From positions 1-63,865 of IMG/VR virus record IMGVR_UViG_3300031857_000159: a stretch of 63,865 bases of DNA, one strand, 5' to 3'. Below the pieces are notes generated by a model that was not told the DNA's origin, made no database searches, and saw only the letters and a list, made by a program, of their open reading frames with translations. Origin of the DNA: a virus. Lineage: Duplodnaviria > Caudoviricetes. A program made the translations under genes and the position numbers. Positions 445 to 62,860 of the stretch are shown in pieces (the first letter of the stretch is position 1; every line of letters begins with the position of its first letter).

Positions 445-681
445 TTAGTTAATATATTGTTTTATGATATTTATTAGTGATACATTTTGTTTTGTTATTT
501 GGAATTTTTTGATGTTGAAGTCGAATTTGGCTATTTTGCCGTGTTGGTTTATGAATCTTTTGGTGGTGCATAGCCTACATTCTACGCAGCGATTCAGGTC
601 TGATTTTAGCTGGTACTTCATTCTGTTTTTCTTGAACAGAAATAAAGGTTTTTTGCGCTTGCAGGTAAAACATCTTTTCAT
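445..681 (-). CDS. small basic protein with two CxxC motifs (putative Zn finger)
   Basis: CFTC and CVEC motifs; overlaps upstream stop (ATGA); AACTATC-ATG leader. Confidence 0.65.
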   Translation of the reverse strand: MKRCFTCKRKKPLFLFKKNRMKYQLKSDLNRCVECRLCTTKRFINQHGKIAKFDFNIKKFQITKQNVSLINIIKQYIN

Positions 682-1250
682 GATAGTTTATTTTTACATT
701 TAAAGTTTATGTATGTTTCCTCAATAACGTAACTATTAATATCTTCTATGTTTATAAATATAGAAGATAAGCAGTCTATTATTGCTCCTACTCTATGTTT
801 ATCGTCTTCAAGTATATATTTTATATTTATCCAATCATTTATATCATTAGAATGGAATGAGGTAAATCCGTCCCGCGAAGTATAATTGTCTAAAAAATAC
901 TTTTCAGCTTCGTTATTATTTTCTTTAATTAAATCTATTAATTTATTCAAGTCAACTTCTACGGATATGTTTATTGAATCGTTGGTGAAGTTATAATATT
1001 TTGGAGATTGAATATTTTGATATGTTATTTTTATTGGAAAATACATATTAAGTTCTGATTCTATTTCGCTGACAAATCTTTTTGCTATTCTTTCTCTGTA
1101 ATCAGAATAATCCCATTCAAAATCGTCATAATTAAGATTGGTATTGTTTTCTTCGTTGTACGATTCAATATCAAAATCTTCGTTATTGTATTCGTAAATT
1201 GTTCCATAAAATCCTGCGAATAATGGGGCATAAGTTTCAAATGTTTCCAT
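678..1250 (-). CDS. acidic hypothetical protein (early gene)
   Basis: 190-aa ORF with TATATTTG promoter element upstream (- strand, 1273-1280) and AACTATC-ATG leader. Confidence 0.75.
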   Translation of the reverse strand: METFETYAPLFAGFYGTIYEYNNEDFDIESYNEENNTNLNYDDFEWDYSDYRERIAKRFVSEIESELNMYFPIKITYQNIQSPKYYNFTNDSINISVEVDLNKLIDLIKENNNEAEKYFLDNYTSRDGFTSFHSNDINDWINIKYILEDDKHRVGAIIDCLSSIFINIEDINSYVIEETYINFKCKNKLS

Positions 1251-1287
1251 GATAGTTAGTTTTTAGTTTCTGCAAATATAACAAATA

Positions 1288-23390: not shown

Positions 23391-23439
23391 ATTTGTAACT
23401 TTATACAAATATTTGCGTTAAACATTATAAAAACTATCA
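23391..23439 (+). promoter_or_regulatory. ECF-sigma-like promoter TGTAAC-N16-CGTTA with overlapping palindrome and AACTATCA leader
   Basis: same architecture at 49205-49255 and 55012-55059. Confidence 0.65.
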
Positions 23440-23442
23440 AAC

Positions 23443-23772
23443 ATGAAAACAACAATCAAAAATCAAGACTACTTTAATGGGTTAATTCAAGGCGTTGTCG
23501 CTATGTATAAATTAGGCGAATGTATAAGTGACGACTTAAATCTTGAGTGGAGAATCGAATTTGTAGACAGTAAAAAAGCAAATGTTTATTGCGATTATTC
23601 ATCTTATTCTTGTTATGTATTAGCAAATCCCGGTGATGAGGATTTTGCGCCAGAGTACGAACATATTAATGTTAGAGATACAATGGTTACTCAAATAGAT
23701 AACATTGAAGATGTTGATCATATAATAGACAGAATTACAATAGGAATATTAGCAGAATTACCAAACGTTTAA
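23443..23772 (+). CDS. acidic hypothetical protein (moron-like)
   Basis: has its own promoter within the late region. Confidence 0.7.
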   Translation: MKTTIKNQDYFNGLIQGVVAMYKLGECISDDLNLEWRIEFVDSKKANVYCDYSSYSCYVLANPGDEDFAPEYEHINVRDTMVTQIDNIEDVDHIIDRITIGILAELPNV

Positions 23773-47039: not shown

Positions 47040-47108
47040 GATTTCTTCATAGTTGTTTTAATTAGATTGATTAATTAGTTCTTAAAGCGGGGTTTATTCT
47101 CCGCTTTT
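47040..47108 (+). ncRNA. candidate sRNA 1 (promoter TATCTTTG 47028-47035; ends in hairpin terminator 47084-47108)
   Basis: no ORF between promoter and terminator; body is antisense to an A-rich AUG context. Confidence 0.5.
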
Positions 47109-48676: not shown

Positions 48677-49201
48677 TTATTTAGTCCAATCAAATTTTAA
48701 ATAATTAAAAGATAACAAATGGTATTGAAAAAATTTTTCGTGATGTTTGTCTGGTATATAAGTTTTGTGTCTAAGCTTAATTGATTTTATAGGAACAACA
48801 AACTCTTCAGGCTTTAAATTTTCTTCCGTAGTCAAATACCATGTAAAGTCTAAGGGATTTAATAATTCTTTACTTAATTTAAAGTTTACAGTTTTATCTG
48901 CAAGCTCAAACTGAATAACTCTTAAATCATCATAATCATAATTGTTTATGGTTTGAAATCCTAACGCAATTACTTTTACGTTATAGTCTACATCATACTT
49001 AACAACTAACCAAACGAACAATGTATCTTCTATATCGTTCTGATTAATGAATCCACTTAACATTTTTGATGTAAAATAAACTCCATCTTCGTAAACAGAA
49101 TCAATAGTTTCAAATTTTTCGTACAAATCTGTAATTGGACCCTCTTGAGCGCTAATTGTAAGCCCTGCAAACAATAAAGCTGTTGTGATTAATTTTTTCA
49201 T
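48677..49201 (-). CDS. exported protein with Sec signal peptide
   Basis: MKKLITTALLFAGLTISA/Q (Bacteroidota-type Q after cleavage site); ECF-type promoter upstream. Confidence 0.75.
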   Translation of the reverse strand: MKKLITTALLFAGLTISAQEGPITDLYEKFETIDSVYEDGVYFTSKMLSGFINQNDIEDTLFVWLVVKYDVDYNVKVIALGFQTINNYDYDDLRVIQFELADKTVNFKLSKELLNPLDFTWYLTTEENLKPEEFVVPIKSIKLRHKTYIPDKHHEKFFQYHLLSFNYLKFDWTK

Positions 49202-49204
49202 GAT

Positions 49205-49255
49205 TGATAGTTTTTATATAACCTTTAACGTAGTAATTTGTATAAAGTTACAAAT
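49205..49255 (-). promoter_or_regulatory. ECF-sigma-like promoter TGTAAC-N16-CGTTA with palindrome and AACTATCA leader
   Basis: copy 2 of the motif set. Confidence 0.65.
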
Positions 49256-54115: not shown

Positions 54116-54409
54116 TTAATAAATTAATTTATCCGTCTTTAACTCTTGTTTCCTTTTGTAATTAGTTAGTTTCTTAGTAATTCTCTTTCTCAATAACGTT
54201 GCTGACTTTCTCATCTTAGCATTGCTTTTAAATTCAAATCTGCCTAAACCTTTAACTGTTATTGATACTGCTGAAACATCTGACTTTTTCCTTTTAAACC
54301 TATCAGATATTCCCGTCCAAAAAGGATACAGCATAAAATATAATTCTTTGCGTGTGTATTGCGGAAACATACTGATAAGTTTGTCGGGAACTTGTTTGTC
54401 TTTTGCCAT
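54116..54409 (-). CDS. HU/IHF-like basic protein
   Basis: SITVKGLGRFEFK motif. Confidence 0.5.
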   Translation of the reverse strand: MAKDKQVPDKLISMFPQYTRKELYFMLYPFWTGISDRFKRKKSDVSAVSITVKGLGRFEFKSNAKMRKSATLLRKRITKKLTNYKRKQELKTDKLIY

Positions 54410-55008
54410 TACTTAGTAACTACTGATACTTCTTTGTAAAACTTAATACCTGCAATAATATCACCATCGTTAAGTGATTCTTTGTTAGCCTTAATCCATT
54501 CACGAACTTTTGCCTCGTCAACCATTAAGAATTGAACAGGAACTCTGCTAAGGTCAACAACATCAAATTTCCAATTGTGTCTGATGTTAGATGCTTTTTG
54601 TGATTCTAACATAGCTAACTCATGGTTAATGCTGTCTTCAAATAAACTGTTAGCTGGAGCTTGCTGTTTAAGTTCTTGCTCTCTTCTTAGTAATTCTAAG
54701 TTCCATTCCTTAATTTGATTTTTAAGGTACTGAATAGAATTGTTAAGAGGTTCAGATAAATCTTTAGCAACTGCATCAACTTTTTTACCTGCATCAAGGT
54801 AAGGCTTTTTAAGTTCTGTCCTTTTCTCTTCAATCAGTTTTAAGTGATTGTTTACTGCGGATAACTTTTGATTTGCAATAGCTAAAGATACATCGTCTGT
54901 AACTTTAATTTGTAACGCTTCTTCAGATAACTGAATGAATACGTCTTTTGTAGATTGTAGTTTACTCCATTCTAAATCTACTCTGTCGGTTGTTGTGATT
55001 GTGTTCAT
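54409..55008 (-). CDS. coiled-coil protein (Gp157/Gam-like)
   Basis: EEKR..LKKPYLD and WKFDVVD.SRVP..FL.VDE..V...I.GI.FY motifs. Confidence 0.55.
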   Translation of the reverse strand: MNTITTTDRVDLEWSKLQSTKDVFIQLSEEALQIKVTDDVSLAIANQKLSAVNNHLKLIEEKRTELKKPYLDAGKKVDAVAKDLSEPLNNSIQYLKNQIKEWNLELLRREQELKQQAPANSLFEDSINHELAMLESQKASNIRHNWKFDVVDLSRVPVQFLMVDEAKVREWIKANKESLNDGDIIAGIKFYKEVSVVTK

Positions 55009-55011
55009 GAC

Positions 55012-55059
55012 TGATAGTTTTTATATGTATAACGTAAAAATTTGTACAATGTTACAAAA
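55012..55059 (-). promoter_or_regulatory. ECF-sigma-like promoter TGTAAC-N16-CGTTA with palindrome and AACTATCA leader
   Basis: copy 3; an extra TTGTA-N6-TACAA lies at 55085-55100. Confidence 0.65.
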
Positions 55060-56833: not shown

Positions 56834-58438
56834 TTAAAAGAATGGATTACCATTATTGTTAGGTGTGTATTTATTTACTACTTCTTTATTTTCTCTTTTT
56901 TCTATTTCGTTAAGCGCCATTTTAAATTCAGATATTGTTACTCCATTACTAACGTCGTAACCTTTCCATTTTAATAAACCAATTTGTTTTTCTGTTGCTG
57001 GTTGTGCGCTGATAATTTCACTACACATTTTCTTTGTGTATTCTACATTAACTGTATCATATCCTAAACGAGCTATCCATGCTAATTGTTTTTCGGTAGC
57101 AGGCTCTTCCATCTTAATAGAGTTACTAATATAAACTTTTGGTAACGCGAATAAATCAACTTTAACGTCTTTTTTAGATGTAGCTACTACATAGGCTATC
57201 TTTCTTTCTCTTTCATCAATTAAGGCTTTCTTTTTAGCCTTAGTCATGAATACTTTCTCTTCCGTTGCTTTGCCTGAATCTAAGCTCCAAGCGTTAATTA
57301 GCTTGTGCCTTGTTGTACTATCAACAAAATCAAGTATGACACAATTCTGCCCGTATTTAGCAATAAAGTTCTCATCTTTTAAACGGGTGCCTCTGCCGAT
57401 ACATTGCAAATATTTAGATAACGACTTAGTCGGAGCGCAATTACCTATAACTCCCGTGTTTCTGTGATCGAATCCAGTAGTTAAAATACCTACATTAGTT
57501 AATACTTGTATTTTACCCGCTTTAAAATCTTTAATGGTTTGTGACCTATCTCCTGTTGATTCTTCATCAGACGAAACAGCATTACAAATAATTCCTTGTG
57601 ATTTAAACTCTTCTGCTAAATGTAAGCTATGTTTAATATCAACACAAAAGAAAATACCCTGTCTTCCTTCTGCGTATGTTTTGTACGAATCTACAATTAG
57701 TTTATTCCTTTGAGGTATATCTACTTCGTTTGATAAATCTTTAGCGTTAAATTCACCGCCTGTTGTTCTGACGTTATCAAGTGATAAATCAGTTTTAATT
57801 CTTACAGCATCTAACTCGCACAAGTAACCGTCTTTAACTCCGTCCGCAATATCGTAACTATAAACTATTTTATCAAACATATTACCTAACTGCATACCAT
57901 CTAAACGCGTAGGCGTTGCCGTTAATCCCAATAATAGTTTAGGTTCAAAGTATTTTAAAGGATCGGAGAATGTACGACTAAGGAATAGGTGAGCTTCGTC
58001 ACAGATAATAGCATCAAAATGGTCTTTTGGTAATTTATCTAATCTTCTGTATAGCGTTTGAGCAGAAGCCATTACTACGCTTCCATCAGGATAAAAAGCA
58101 TCTGCCTTTATTAATCCCATTCTGAATTTAATACCTCTACATCCGAACATTCCCGAACCATTATGGACCCAATTAATGAATCCTATATCTTCAACAGCAT
58201 CAGTAAGCTCCTTATCAAACTTTTCGGATAAAAAGGCTAAGGCTGATTGTTGTACTAATTCTTCGGTATGGGTAATCCACAATACACGCTGAAAGTTAAA
58301 TTGTTCTATGGCTTTAACGGCGGTAAAGGTTTTGCCTGTGCCGGTTGCCATTACTAATAACTGTTTCTTAACGCCATTGTCAAGTTCTTTCTTAACAGCA
58401 TCAATAGCTTTGATTTGATAATCTCTTAATGGTTTCAT
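56834..58438 (-). CDS. SF2 DEAH helicase (Irc3/YejH-like)
   Basis: LRDYQ, ATGTGKT, DEAH, GLTATP and QCIGRGTR motifs; ATEKQ repeats. Confidence 0.92.
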   Translation of the reverse strand: MKPLRDYQIKAIDAVKKELDNGVKKQLLVMATGTGKTFTAVKAIEQFNFQRVLWITHTEELVQQSALAFLSEKFDKELTDAVEDIGFINWVHNGSGMFGCRGIKFRMGLIKADAFYPDGSVVMASAQTLYRRLDKLPKDHFDAIICDEAHLFLSRTFSDPLKYFEPKLLLGLTATPTRLDGMQLGNMFDKIVYSYDIADGVKDGYLCELDAVRIKTDLSLDNVRTTGGEFNAKDLSNEVDIPQRNKLIVDSYKTYAEGRQGIFFCVDIKHSLHLAEEFKSQGIICNAVSSDEESTGDRSQTIKDFKAGKIQVLTNVGILTTGFDHRNTGVIGNCAPTKSLSKYLQCIGRGTRLKDENFIAKYGQNCVILDFVDSTTRHKLINAWSLDSGKATEEKVFMTKAKKKALIDERERKIAYVVATSKKDVKVDLFALPKVYISNSIKMEEPATEKQLAWIARLGYDTVNVEYTKKMCSEIISAQPATEKQIGLLKWKGYDVSNGVTISEFKMALNEIEKRENKEVVNKYTPNNNGNPFF

Positions 58439-58449
58439 TTATTACCTGA

Positions 58450-58880
58450 TAGTTTAATGTTCTAAAAGCGGTTTTAAATAGCCGTAGACCGCTACTACGC
58501 TAACTTACGATTTAGTTTCTTAGTGGTTGGTTGTGAATGCTATTCACATTAACCAAACTTGAAAGCTTACGTTCTCTGCGCGCATCAGAGATTTTGTAGC
58601 CAAGACAGGTACTGCCCCTGTTTCTTAGTATTTTGCTTTTTATCGCGCAACTATGAGTTACTTTTACTCTACCTGACTATGTAATCGCGCTTCAAGTTAT
58701 TTGTTTCTTACGATACGTGTAGCACCTATATTATTACATTAATGCTATTCTACGCTATGTAATAAGCCTCAACCATCAATCACAAACCTGCATAAAACAG
58801 GACTTACTTGAAACGCAACAATTTCGCAGGGGCTATGATTTTCTTACGGGAATAGAGCATAACAATTACCCTGCAATGCT
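58450..58880 (-). ncRNA. cluster of structured non-coding RNA elements in the helicase leader
   Basis: no ORF of 60 aa or more; promoter TAATTTTG (58907-58900); at least 5 stems plus a tRNA-like fold. Confidence 0.6.
58597..58678 (-). ncRNA. tRNA-like element with non-canonical anticodon arm
   Basis: acceptor AGUCAGG/CUUGGCU, U8A9, D arm GAGU-AAAAGUA-ACUC, T arm ACAGG-GGCAGUA-CCUGU; no encoded CCA. Confidence 0.7.
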
Positions 58881-58892
58881 TTTAAAGAACTA

Positions 58893-59204
58893 ATTTGTGC
58901 AAAATTACAAATAAAATCATTACTTTCCAAATAAATTTTTACAAAAGAATAATGATTGTTGAAAACATTATTTAATTACCTGTATTTATAAGCTATTTTA
59001 ATACCTCCTCAGAACTATCGGTATGTTACAAATTAATTTAGAATAAATCTAAACAAGTATCAATTTATCAGATAGTTAAGTATTAAATTGTAAAAACTTT
59101 ACAATTACATAAAAATAATCAGCTTAATTATCAGACAGTTACAACTTATGTTAATGTAAAATTGTAATATGTATTGATTTTAAGCGTTTTATATTTTACA
59201 TTTG
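58893..59204. promoter_or_regulatory. divergent control region
   Basis: TAATTTTG (-) and TACATTTG (+, 59197) promoters, palindromes, Fur-like box 59036-59054, IHF-like WATCAR-N4-TTR boxes. Confidence 0.6.
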
Positions 59205-59214
59205 CGTATAAATT

Positions 59215-59814
59215 TTGAATATTTTCAGAATTTATATAAATAATATAAAAACTATCAAAGTGGGAATCAACAGACAGGGAAACAATCGCAGGGTTCAAAA
59301 GACTGAAATTGAAACTTTATTGGATTTTAGAGAACTATCAATTCATAAATCCAATAGAGTTATTACTAAAAACTTTACAGCGTATATAACAGGATCCGAA
59401 ACAAATCTTGCAAGACTACTGACGTTTTTAATATTTGAAGCAAAGAGAAATAACGTATTAGAATTTAATACTCACTTGTTAGTTAAGTACGGGCAATATT
59501 TAGAAGCTGTTCAAAATAAGTTTGGTAATGAAGTTAAGACGCGTAAAACGGTAATGTTTAACAGAAATGATTTTCAGCAGTTAGTAAGGTTAGGAATTAT
59601 CATCCCAATTGTACCTAAAGAGAAATTGTTTTTAATAAACCCGGCGTTAACATACCATGAAGGTTACTACAATGAACAAGCAACTTACATGAAAGCTTAC
59701 GAGAACATCTATGCGCTGTATGTTTTTGGAGGATACGATAAAAAGGTATTACATTCTTTAATAGTAACGGCGGCAAAAGAGTTTTATAATAATTGTTTAA
59801 ATAAAAATATATGA
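59215..59814 (+). CDS. winged-helix (RepL-like) protein; likely start GTG 59260
   Basis: LV.LGII......FLINP motif; AACTATCA precedes the GTG. Confidence 0.55.
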   Translation: MNIFRIYINNIKTIKVGINRQGNNRRVQKTEIETLLDFRELSIHKSNRVITKNFTAYITGSETNLARLLTFLIFEAKRNNVLEFNTHLLVKYGQYLEAVQNKFGNEVKTRKTVMFNRNDFQQLVRLGIIIPIVPKEKLFLINPALTYHEGYYNEQATYMKAYENIYALYVFGGYDKKVLHSLIVTAAKEFYNNCLNKNI

Positions 59815-61433: not shown

Positions 61434-61648
61434 TTATGAAGCCTGAAGAAAAAGCGAAAGAACTTTATTTAAAATATTATATTCCTGATTATTGTTTTGC
61501 TAAAGCCGGCATGAGTTCAGATTGGAGACAAACAGCATCTAAAAAATACGCAACAATGGTAGTTGATGAAATAATTGACAACGGGATAAAGTGGATGCCT
61601 GAAGTTGACTGGTGGATTGAAGTAAAAAAACAAATACAATTAATATGA
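61412..61648 (+). CDS. hypothetical protein (P.EKA.EL..VDEI..W..VK family)
   Basis: paralog of 61645. Confidence 0.6.
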   Translation: MLHNNLVIMKPEEKAKELYLKYYIPDYCFAKAGMSSDWRQTASKKYATMVVDEIIDNGIKWMPEVDWWIEVKKQIQLI

Positions 61649-61827: not shown

Positions 61828-61879
61828 AAATTTAACACTTTTTATTTGGAAATTAAATAATCATTTCCTAAATTTGCAT

Positions 61880-61938
61880 TCATACACTTTTTTAAAGTAG
61901 AGCGGGGAAGTTTACCTGATAGTTCTTCTCCGCTTTTT
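61880..61938 (+). ncRNA. candidate sRNA 2 or attenuator hairpin
   Basis: TAAATTTG promoter 61869-61876; stem AGCGGGGAAG/CTTCTCCGCT followed by T run; loop TTTACCTGATAGTT. Confidence 0.55.
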
Positions 61939-62002
61939 AAAGTTAAAAACATTCAGGGACGAAAGTTAACAGAGTATCGTTTTTTTAAACGCAACAACAA
62001 AA

Positions 62003-62860
62003 GTGAAAGACATTGTTTACACACATACAGAAATTAGCTCTGCCGTAAAAGATGGTCAAAAACCATTGCGTAAAGTTGTTGTTACGCCGGAGGGCTTTCG
62101 TCATTTAAGAATAAATCCGCAAGTAGTTAAGGTTATATCCGATGAGGGTAATTTAAAGTTACTTGCGGTATTTTTAAGACTAAAATCTGTTTACAGTAAT
62201 TCTTGCATATACAATGTAACTGACAGTAAATTGGCGGCGATATTAAAAGTATCACGTCAGACAGCAAACAGGTTAAGAAACCGTTTAGAGCGTTTAGGCT
62301 GGGTAAAGTATCACGGTAACAACTTAATGTTATTAAAGGTAACAGAAATAAGCCATGAGTATATTCAGAAAGACGTTGAAGGTTTCAGCAGAAAGGCTAA
62401 TGTATATTTAGAAGTAAAGAGTAAACAATTAAAAGACATTGAAACCTATTTAAGGTATTTAATAATAAAGCAGAAGGAGATAAACAAGAACTACTTATTG
62501 GAGTTACGTCAAGACCTATCTAATCCGAAGAGTGTTAAGCAATTTAAAAAGTTAGCAGAGCGCTGTAAGAAATTAGGCATAACAGCCTTAAACGGTGAAA
62601 TTGACTATCAGCTTCAAATAAGTTATAAAGGACTTGCAAAGCTTCTAAACTGTTCAGTAGGATCCGCCTACAATTACCTCCGTAACCTCGCGCGGAAAGA
62701 AGTTCTCAAAGTACACACCAAAAGAGAAGTAATAAAGAAGAACATACAAGAACATATATGGAACGACTTCCTGTCCTACCAAGATGTATATAAGAACTGC
62801 TTCTACTCCTACGGATACATAATAAAGAACCACTGCAATAAATATAACCTATTAGCATAA
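62003..62860 (+). CDS. putative replication initiator with tandem HTH/winged-helix motifs
   Basis: KLAAILKVSRQTANRL..LERLGWV and SYKGLAKLLNCSVGSA..YL..L motifs; adjacent to a non-coding skewed region. Confidence 0.55.
   Translation: MKDIVYTHTEISSAVKDGQKPLRKVVVTPEGFRHLRINPQVVKVISDEGNLKLLAVFLRLKSVYSNSCIYNVTDSKLAAILKVSRQTANRLRNRLERLGWVKYHGNNLMLLKVTEISHEYIQKDVEGFSRKANVYLEVKSKQLKDIETYLRYLIIKQKEINKNYLLELRQDLSNPKSVKQFKKLAERCKKLGITALNGEIDYQLQISYKGLAKLLNCSVGSAYNYLRNLARKEVLKVHTKREVIKKNIQEHIWNDFLSYQDVYKNCFYSYGYIIKNHCNKYNLLA

Follow-up and report, generated by a model that had tools for sequence, protein, structure and literature searches.

The locus examined here raises the question of why a phage hairpin should carry in its loop the exact complement of a short sequence that stands just before the start codons of seven genes in the same genome. 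The hairpin lies at 61899-61938 on the + strand of IMG/VR virus record IMGVR_UViG_3300031857_000159, a linear record of 63,865 bases (33% G+C, estimated completeness 84%) that was analyzed over its full length and is referred to here as the window, and it stands 5' of a gene whose product resembles replication initiation proteins, the rep-like gene. Our preferred answer, which is tentative and which we stop short of calling probable, is that the loop pairs with the 5' leaders of phage mRNAs and blocks ribosome binding there, most of all on the helicase mRNA, acting either as an RNA of about 55 nucleotides (nt) or as part of the leader of the rep-like mRNA.

A first-pass annotation had placed at this locus a Bacteroidota promoter at 61869 followed by a GC-rich stem with a U tail, a 13-nt complement of the loop just upstream of the helicase AUG, and an octamer complementary to the loop core at the starts of six other genes, and all of these are present in the sequence (Table 1). 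The promoter has the form TTTG-N17-23-TAnnTTTG, which we take to be the Bacteroidota consensus, and is one of eight full matches in the window, several of them at operon starts, as against 4.1 in shuffled sequence. Transcription would start near 61883; the hairpin begins 23 nt 3' of the -7 box, and no start codon occurs anywhere between 61883 and 62002. The stem (61899-61936) has 12 pairs, two of them G-U, and encloses a loop of 14 nt (TTTACCTGATAGTT, 61911-61924) that is single-stranded in both the minimum-free-energy and the centroid fold. The hairpin folds at -17.7 kcal/mol (z -3.4, none of 200 shuffles as good) and its 46-nt core at -16.9 kcal/mol (z -2.9, 2 of 200 shuffles as good). Since the G-U pairs form in + strand RNA only, and the T run is on the + strand only both here and in the closest relative, contig G001, the + strand RNA is the one that folds.

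Table 1. Positions in the window of the hairpin unit and of the leader motif at seven start codons.
Feature	Position	Strand	Description
Predicted host-type (Bacteroidota) promoter	61845-61876	+	-33 box TTTG 61845-61848; 20-nt spacer; -7 box TAAATTTG 61869-61876
Hairpin and U tail	61899-61938	+	5' arm 61899-61910 AGAGCGGGGAAG; 3' arm 61925-61936 CTTCTCCGCTTT; T5 run 61934-61938
Anti-motif in loop	61912-61924	+	TTACCTGATAGTT, exact complement of the helicase leader 13-mer; core TGATAGTT 61917-61924
Conserved non-coding leader, hairpin to rep-like gene	61939-62002	+	T7 run 61981-61987; no start codon; no room for a promoter
Rep-like / DnaD-like winged helix-turn-helix gene	62003-62860	+	GTG start (ATG in G001)
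Helicase leader motif AACTATCAGGTAA	58442-58454	-	Ends 3 nt before ATG 58438 (gene 56834-58438); 13 nt complementary to loop
Motif AACTATCA	55012-55019	-	3 nt before ATG of gene 54409-55008 (exonuclease-like)
Motif AACTATCA	49205-49212	-	3 nt before ATG of gene 48677-49201
Motif AACTATCA	23432-23439	+	3 nt before ATG of gene 23443-23772
Motif AACTATCA	1250-1257	-	Overlaps ATG of gene 678-1250; 15 nt 3' of perfect -7 box TATATTTG
Motif AACTATCA	681-688	-	Overlaps ATG of gene 445-681; intercistronic junction, ATGA stop/start overlap
Motif AACTATCA	59250-59257	+	2 nt before GTG of gene 59260-59814

The counterpart of the loop is a word of phage start regions. The 13-mer AACTATCAGGTAA occurs exactly twice in the window, in the helicase leader and, read on the - strand (61912-61924), in the loop. 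The octamer AACTATCA occurs 13 times, compared with 3.58 +/- 1.74 in shuffles (none of 100 reached 13), and seven of these copies, each oriented like its gene, lie 0-8 nt 5' of a start codon, in start-codon windows that make up about 1% of positions. Five of the seven motif-led genes belong to the automatic gene set (678-1250, 23443, 48677-49201, 54409-55008 and 56834-58438) and two, 445-681 and GTG 59260, were read by eye. The other six copies comprise the loop itself, four within open reading frames (ORFs; 331, 13689, 20597 and 25522), and one in coding sequence at 59333, which falls within a 10-bp hairpin and was treated as chance because it is coding and has no conserved counterpart in G001. 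Apart from A-rich words, no 8-mer ranks above the motif at the start regions of the window or of G001, and it is the most start-region-specific word.

The evidence argues that the motif is an RNA signal of phage 5' leaders, because it is specific to starts, is not a host signal, and stands both at intercistronic junctions without room for a promoter (681 in the window; 14830, 63674 and 64040 in G001) and 15-35 nt 3' of host-type -7 boxes, that is, inside 5' untranslated regions. A role as promoter spacer or transcription start site was rejected, as several copies have no -10/-7-like box and others lie well 3' of perfect -7 boxes. A host-wide start signal was rejected as well: in the 61 Bacteroidota genomes searched the pattern AAACTATCA-N0-5-ATG is at about control level, occurring 0-21 times per genome of 1.8-5.4 Mb versus 7 times in the 64-kb window, and on these counts the motif is phage-specific. 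Pairing of the motif with ribosomal RNA was rejected for the genomes searched, with the reservation that the actual host may differ, since none of 15 Bacteroidota 16S genes holds TGATAGTT; a G-U-tolerant form of the same word was likewise absent from these 15 genes and up to 1.5 kb on each side. Nor does the loop appear to mimic a host RNA in the genomes searched, TTYNSTGATAGTT being at about control frequency in the 61 genomes and at no constant locus. Since the motif is neither a host signal nor complementary to 16S rRNA, we expect its reader to be encoded by the phage, and the only complement of the motif in the window, and in G001, is the loop.

Comparison with G001, a contig of 68,601 bases and the sole close relative found (helicase 87% identical in protein sequence, DNA about 72-77% identical), separates the loop from the stem that holds it. 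The G001 hairpin is at the same place, 5' of the rep-like gene, and keeps the loop core CCTGATAGTT inside a different stem, of 8 bp (GGAGGGGA/UCCCCUCU) around an 18-nt loop (GAUUUCCUGAUAGUUUGA), followed by a run of five U residues. In the alignment the loop is identical at 12 of 14 positions, compared with 4 of 12 in the 3' arm and 7 of 9, with three gaps, in the 5' arm, and the core recurs in the unrelated stems of three further contigs (L107, G002 and L330) described below. This greater conservation of the seed than of its surroundings supports the view that the loop, not the stem, is under selection. The motif stands before seven G001 genes. The promoter block (61828-61878) is identical to G001 at 42 of 51 positions and the leader side (61939-62002) at 45 of 56, with 8 gap columns; this conserved non-coding block opens directly behind the stop codon of the preceding gene, which is unrelated between the two phages (E = 1.5). 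It follows that promoter, hairpin and leader move together with the rep-like gene as a unit.

The strands on which the motif lies are also informative. All seven of the motif copies just before starts in G001, from a total of 12, are on the strand opposite to the hairpin, as are five of the seven in the window, including the 13-bp helicase partner, so that any pairing there would have to be in trans. Exactly one intergenic copy in each of the two genomes is antisense to local transcription, and that copy is the loop. To judge from the aligned leaders, it is turnover and not simple inheritance that maintains the motif, because its position differs between the two helicase leaders (in G001 a decayed copy lies beside a fresh one) and because the copy before gene 59260, which starts with GTG where G001 has ATG, is an 8-nt insertion (AAACTATC; 59242-59262) relative to G001 (L002, around 3959).

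Further relatives are scarce. In the phage collection there was no near DNA match, helicase matches were below 30% identity, and a distant DNA search gave noise only; among viral contigs the rep-like protein alone found nothing, its alignment found G001 only, and the helicase found G001 and remote matches; metagenome contigs held no relative by either the rep-like or the helicase alignment, and genome contigs held remote helicases only. A pattern scan for the conserved block returned G001 and three unrelated matches only. A 12.7-kb fragment about 90% identical to G001 (G004, which is L132) stops short of the hairpin.

The loop and the motif nevertheless recur together outside this lineage. A scan of IMG/VR for the start-region pattern gave 112 loci, mostly chance, from which three contigs stood out (G003, G002 and L132). 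G002, a complete contig of 54.7 kb and 39% G+C, has two motif-led genes, and between them, 3 nt after a stop codon, the sequence CCGUG-UUUCGUGAUAGUU-CACGG. Its relative L107 was found by a scan for the loop (118 matches from 119 stretches), and the two share a 32-nt hairpin island containing UUUCGUGAUAGUU that is 100% identical between non-homologous genes, the motif-led leaders being 87-88% conserved. A second scan (119 matches) yielded L330 (27% G+C), which has no blastn similarity to any of the others. It carries the hairpin GUAGGAU-[UAUUUCGUGAUAGUUUUU]-AUCCUAC (-12.7 kcal/mol, z -2.2) in non-coding DNA, extending over the stop codon of an HNH-like gene, and the strand of the hairpin also bears two motif-led genes. 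The 11-kb contig G003 (L121) has the motif before four genes, and its first leader (205-311) contains, in order, a long sense copy GAAACUAUCACGAAA, an anti-motif GUGAUAGU and the start-region copy. As a control, we collected 206 distinct contexts of the loop 13-mer, of which 13 have a flanking stem of at least 7 bp, near the chance expectation. Seven of these 13 were inspected: five are inside long ORFs with no motif-led start, and the two non-coding ones are those of L107 and L330, with two motif-led starts each. Between window/G001 and G002/G003 there is no detectable DNA similarity and no protein family shared at E <= 1e-3, bar one marginal match of 25 residues, and a search with the G002 neighbor protein matched only itself. 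Thus, four stems in three lineages without shared similarity carry the same loop, each in a genome with the same start tag.

From these observations we propose the following sequence of events. The + strand of 61845-61938 would be a small RNA unit transcribed from its own host-type promoter, giving a transcript of about 55 nt that ends at the 12-bp hairpin and its U5 tail; read-through would place the same hairpin in the 5' leader of the rep-like mRNA. The loop, which offers a single-stranded and exact complement of 8-13 nt to seven initiation regions, would pair in the cell with AACUAUCA in 5' leaders, 0-8 nt before the seven start codons, cover the ribosome landing site and so lower translation. 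The targets would be mostly replication and recombination genes and the first genes of transcription units, the helicase mRNA being affected most (13 bp, about -18 kcal/mol) and the other six less (8-9 bp). The trans-acting, loop-presenting RNA of the first-pass annotation thus gains from the conserved loop, the phage-specific leader motif, the recurrence in other phages and the opposite-strand targets; that it exists as a discrete RNA of about 60 nt, and that it represses rather than activates, we infer. Its suggested role as an early-to-late switch fares less well. We see no basis for one, as the hairpin and several motif-led genes share a host-type promoter class and no timing difference is visible, and a feedback or dosage loop tied to rep-like expression would be as likely. 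The annotation's other suggestion, an attenuator read by the helicase leader, is unlikely in that form, because loop pairing alone would not open a 12-bp GC-rich stem; a role in the leader is plausible, the hairpin block traveling with the rep-like gene.

Several observations weigh against this reading, and the rival explanations draw on some of them. No RNA run was found among the runs listed as carrying the phage (20 DNA rows from 15 studies of lake, freshwater, soil and other samples), the -7 box of G001 is imperfect (TAATTTAG, a 7/8 match), and the window's own lineage is compared with one close relative. Pairing energies, for which the first-pass annotation had called for a scan of start regions, give a divided result. 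The helicase leader-loop duplex, at -17.9 kcal/mol, is the best of 82 start regions. The other six duplexes are weak (8-9 bp, -8 to -11 kcal/mol), and the number of start regions at or below -8 kcal/mol is not above that for shuffled loops (6 vs 4.3 +/- 3.0 in the window, 12 vs 11.4 +/- 4.5 in G001, 8 vs 7.1 +/- 4.2 in G002). Exact direct repeats of at least 13 nt are also common in this AT-rich stretch (five families in 5.5 kb), so the 13-mer is notable only for the location of its two copies, and the 13-nt helicase extension could be luck, at roughly 1% given the core.

Both the frequency of exact 13-mers and the energy counts would suit an ordinary intrinsic terminator of the upstream operon whose loop match is an AT-rich coincidence, and so would the GC-rich stem followed by a U run in the window (12 bp and U5) and in G001 (8 bp and U5). 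Indeed, a terminator between convergent gene blocks at 47084-47107 has a stem (AAGCGGGG/CTCCGCTTT) that nearly matches that of the hairpin (61901-61936, AGCGGGG.../...CTCCGCTTT), with the same G-U pair. Its loop has only 6 nt, in contrast to 14 nt, and the hairpin looks like this terminator with a functional loop inserted. The remaining terminator-like hairpins listed for the window and G001 have nominal loops of 3-15 nt, mostly 3-8, so that the stem looks like an exchangeable scaffold and the large loop (14 nt, 18 in G001) like the distinctive feature. A short and unconstrained terminator loop is not what is found: the sequence of the loop persists where that of the stem has been exchanged, the block goes with the gene downstream of it and not with the one upstream, and non-coding hairpins in unrelated phages that have motif-led genes display this loop too. 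We therefore disfavor this explanation and regard it as very improbable.

The hairpins of the other lineages bear on a second explanation, in which pairing is in cis or at long range, a hairpin within a polycistronic mRNA sequestering the start motif of a neighboring gene and so coupling or gating translation, as in the MS2 coat-replicase or hok fold-back pairings. The hairpins of G002, L107 and L330 lie 3-5 nt after a stop codon, or overlap one, on the same strand as their motif-led neighbors, whose starts are 140-250 nt (G002, L107) or about 2-3 kb (L330) away; this arrangement fits cis as well as trans action. None of the three has a U tail, which means that termination is not what all these hairpins have in common, and in the best fold of G002 and L107 a 7-bp stem capped by a tetraloop, not a large loop, holds part of the anti-motif. 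In the G003 leader, where an anti-motif shares a leader with two copies of the motif, the best fold pairs the sense copy with the anti-motif, and the three elements could be a cis switch. In the window the motif at 59250 is on the same strand as the hairpin and may share its operon. Against these points, none of the folds of G002, L107 and G003 reaches a significant z-score, and the partners in the window lineage are mostly not on one RNA, with the opposite-strand counts already given; a cis mechanism would act there only within long transcripts. The G001 ortholog of gene 59260 has no motif. Opposite-strand targets and this motifless ortholog mean that cis pairing cannot explain the conservation of the loop in the window lineage, and as an account of the whole we judge it unlikely.

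A trans-acting RNA is further weakened by the rigidity of the motif. One-mismatch variants at starts number 0 of 125 in the window and 0 of 89 in G001, the identical 8-mer is present in phage lineages with no common DNA and essentially no protein similarity, and compensatory change of loop and motif was not seen, as neither the loop core nor the motif varies among the contigs examined. A private RNA-RNA pair would be free to co-vary, and the exact shared 8-mer therefore suggests a third reader, either a protein or a host factor, or horizontal spread of cassettes. The loop is moreover conserved 5' of the anti-motif (UUUC C/G), beyond the pairing reach of most leaders; this part is matched by the helicase leader of the window and by the long copy of G003.

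A fixed protein specificity would account better than free RNA-RNA co-evolution for a motif that tolerates no variation at starts and is the same in lineages without relationship, and likewise for conservation of the loop beyond most leaders' pairing. The protein would be a translational regulator of the T4 RegA type or another RNA- or DNA-binding factor, and the loop a separate site, similar to nut/boxB, or a competitor. The comparison that yielded only a marginal 25-residue match between window/G001 and G002/G003 offers no such protein, however, the neighboring genes scanned contain no RNA-binding domain, and binding of AACUAUCA by a protein would not extend to its complement, which leaves the loop unexplained. 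We find this distinctly unlikely.

Alternatively, the elements may be mobile regulatory cassettes, conserved promoter, leader and stem-loop modules placed around variable genes and used as joints for recombination in the manner of the PeSLs of T4-type phages, with a complementarity of loop and motif that is incidental or due to common descent. Conserved promoter and stem-loop sequence does lie beside non-homologous genes, both in G002 relative to L107 and, 5' of the hairpin block, in the window relative to G001; the motif appears as a discrete 8-nt insertion or deletion, three copies of a promoter/leader cassette of about 50 nt occur in the window, the gene at 61436-61644 is missing from variant strains, and the same elements occur in lineages without detectable similarity. 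Cassettes leave unexplained, however, why four independent stems each enclose the exact complement of the motif, why the loop is retained while stems are replaced, and why it is the only intergenic antisense copy; recombination joints also need no fixed distance to an ATG. We judge cassette exchange improbable as the explanation.

A combination can also be imagined in which AACUAUCA is a private Shine-Dalgarno-like translation signal of several unrelated Bacteroidota phages, whose hosts themselves make no use of such pairing, the loop UUUC(C/G)UGAUAGUU is its dedicated RNA reader, and the two form a portable module exchanged horizontally. Such a module would bring selected genes into one translational regulon controlled by RNA, in trans in the window and G001 and in cis in G002, L107, L330 and G003, and would possibly activate as well as repress. 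We consider this something of a long shot. Among the explanations weighed, pairing of the loop with the leaders, with repression of the helicase mRNA above all, is the one we retain, at the tentative level stated at the outset.

The phage and its likely host can be described in outline. The terminase is distantly similar to those of crAss-like phages (about 24% identity), and the window also encodes a portal, a major head protein, a DnaB-like helicase and an SF2 helicase; no tRNA or tmRNA was found in it. Translation initiation in Bacteroidota is not known to use Shine-Dalgarno pairing, and the start codons of the window are preceded by A-rich leaders without Shine-Dalgarno sequences. This, with the excess over shuffles of promoter-form sites, several of them at operon starts, makes a Bacteroidota host likely. 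The rep-like protein matches Pfam HTH_Crp_2 (1.4e-8), a PHROG of replication initiation proteins (1.9e-5) and a DnaD-like loader (1e-3), and is 68% identical in amino acids to its G001 counterpart. A strain about 97-98% identical to the window skips 209 bases (61435 joined to 61645) in all four metagenome runs examined, from four studies. The gene of 70 amino acids at 61436-61648 (PHROG 21441) is accordingly present or absent among strains, since the contigs of that strain skip 61436-61644.

Several features near the hairpin unit and the motif deserve mention in their own right. An imperfect direct repeat (CTTTTTTAAAGTA at 61887-61899, CTTTTTAAAGTTA at 61933-61945) borders the hairpin, is absent from G001 and may be a trace of stem replacement. 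Twenty nucleotides of the promoter spacer (61848-61867, GGAAATTAAATAATCATTTC) have an inverted match of 85% at 58961-58980, in a divergent regulatory region, which could be a shared operator or AT-rich chance. A second hairpin, at 61940-61995, was drawn by RNAalifold from conserved sequence and was set aside, its fold being unsupported (-5 kcal/mol, z -0.2). The Rfam 15 models gave no match at gathering score anywhere in the window, and around the hairpin only sub-threshold noise (E of about 2 or more, looking up to E 10).

The promoter/leader cassette lies at 23393-23442(+), 49202-49251(-) and 55009-55058(-), and again in G001 (L017, 14253-14302). It has the form TTTGTAAC(T/A)TT(G/A)TACAAAT....CGTTA.A...TATAAAAACTATCA-NNN-ATG and holds a -7-like box TAACTTT(G/A) and a palindrome TTGTA-N6-TACAA that could be an operator. 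The 820 bp between the divergent helicase and + strand operons (58439-59259) are without a long ORF and contain several GC-rich hairpins, together with a full promoter consensus aimed at the helicase whose -7 box ends at 58900 and which would give a leader of about 455 nt. Blocks of this region are shared with G001 (for example GTTTCTTACGATAYGTGTAGCACCTA...TTAATGCTATTCTACGC), where the region holds an ORF of 111 amino acids; possible roles for it are as an origin or as a long structured leader.

In the other contigs, non-coding sequence lies 3' of the hairpins over 140-250 nt in G002 and L107, and in L330 (5380-5830, - strand) about 370 nt of GC-richer non-coding sequence follow the HNH-like gene and the hairpin. 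A guess that the L330 stretch is a group I intron is unsupported, there being no Rfam family match, and around the G002 and L330 elements Rfam gave only noise up to E 10. In G003, repeated terminator-like hairpins (ACACCT/AGGTGT) and a conserved TAATCACAAT box precede each of the four motif-led genes.

Post-transcriptional control in phages of Bacteroidota is little known. If the proposed pairing is real, replication and recombination genes are tagged by an exact 8-base leader word and controlled by one hairpin RNA, a compact and experimentally tractable arrangement that would serve well as a component when gene control is engineered in Bacteroidota, and tag and anti-tag in phages without common genes would mark a mobile regulatory module. 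If it is not, a conserved large-loop hairpin and a phage-specific start motif still need explaining.

The system invites comparison with several that are well described. T4 RegA is a protein that recognizes a short sequence adjacent to the start codons of many early and middle genes and shuts them off post-transcriptionally. It differs from the present case in that the regulator is a protein, and here no RegA-like protein was found and an RNA complement is present. In CopA/CopT, RNAI/RNAII and Sok/hok a stable stem presents a loop that nucleates pairing, and antisense RNA loops of this kind carry a YUNR U-turn motif. The CUGA within the window and G001 loops fits YUNR, in contrast to the GUGA of the G002, L107 and L330 loops; those antisense RNAs are also cis-encoded and fully complementary to one target, whereas the candidate RNA would be trans-encoded and match many leaders over 8-13 nt. 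A short exact seed recurring at the translation initiation regions of a regulon is shared with small RNAs of the RybB and OmrA type. Such multi-target RNAs are host-encoded and dependent on Hfq, which Bacteroidota are not known to have; here the seed is in a terminator loop and the regulon would be the phage's own. In that the loop of a terminator hairpin would be the active part, the candidate resembles SdsR, RseX and ArrS acting on fepA, for which a portion of PMC11979758 describes terminator loops that take part in regulation, those on fepA "likely without base-pairing". The PeSLs of T4-type phages, described in the abstract of PMC4122927 as conserved composite regulatory sequences that flank variable small genes and mark points of gene exchange, show the same pattern as G002 compared with L107 and the window with G001; they belong to another phage group and host phylum, and are not described there with complementarity of loop and leader. 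Passages of a preprint on the crAss-like phage phi14:2 report abundant non-coding RNAs of unknown function and middle promoters of the host type, and our literature search found no description of a phage-encoded regulatory RNA for Flavobacterium or related phages. The closest parallel in mode of action would be the c4 antisense RNA of P1 and P7, a phage small RNA that, according to a passage of PMC8198154 citing Citron and Schuster 1990, base-pairs with phage mRNA and blocks the downstream ant/icd. No c4-like model appears among the weak Rfam matches around the hairpin, and c4 acts within its own operon, whereas the candidate would have about seven targets, mostly on other transcripts, in a Bacteroidota-type host. 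What the two would have in common is a regulator made of RNA only and encoded in a regulatory region of the phage.

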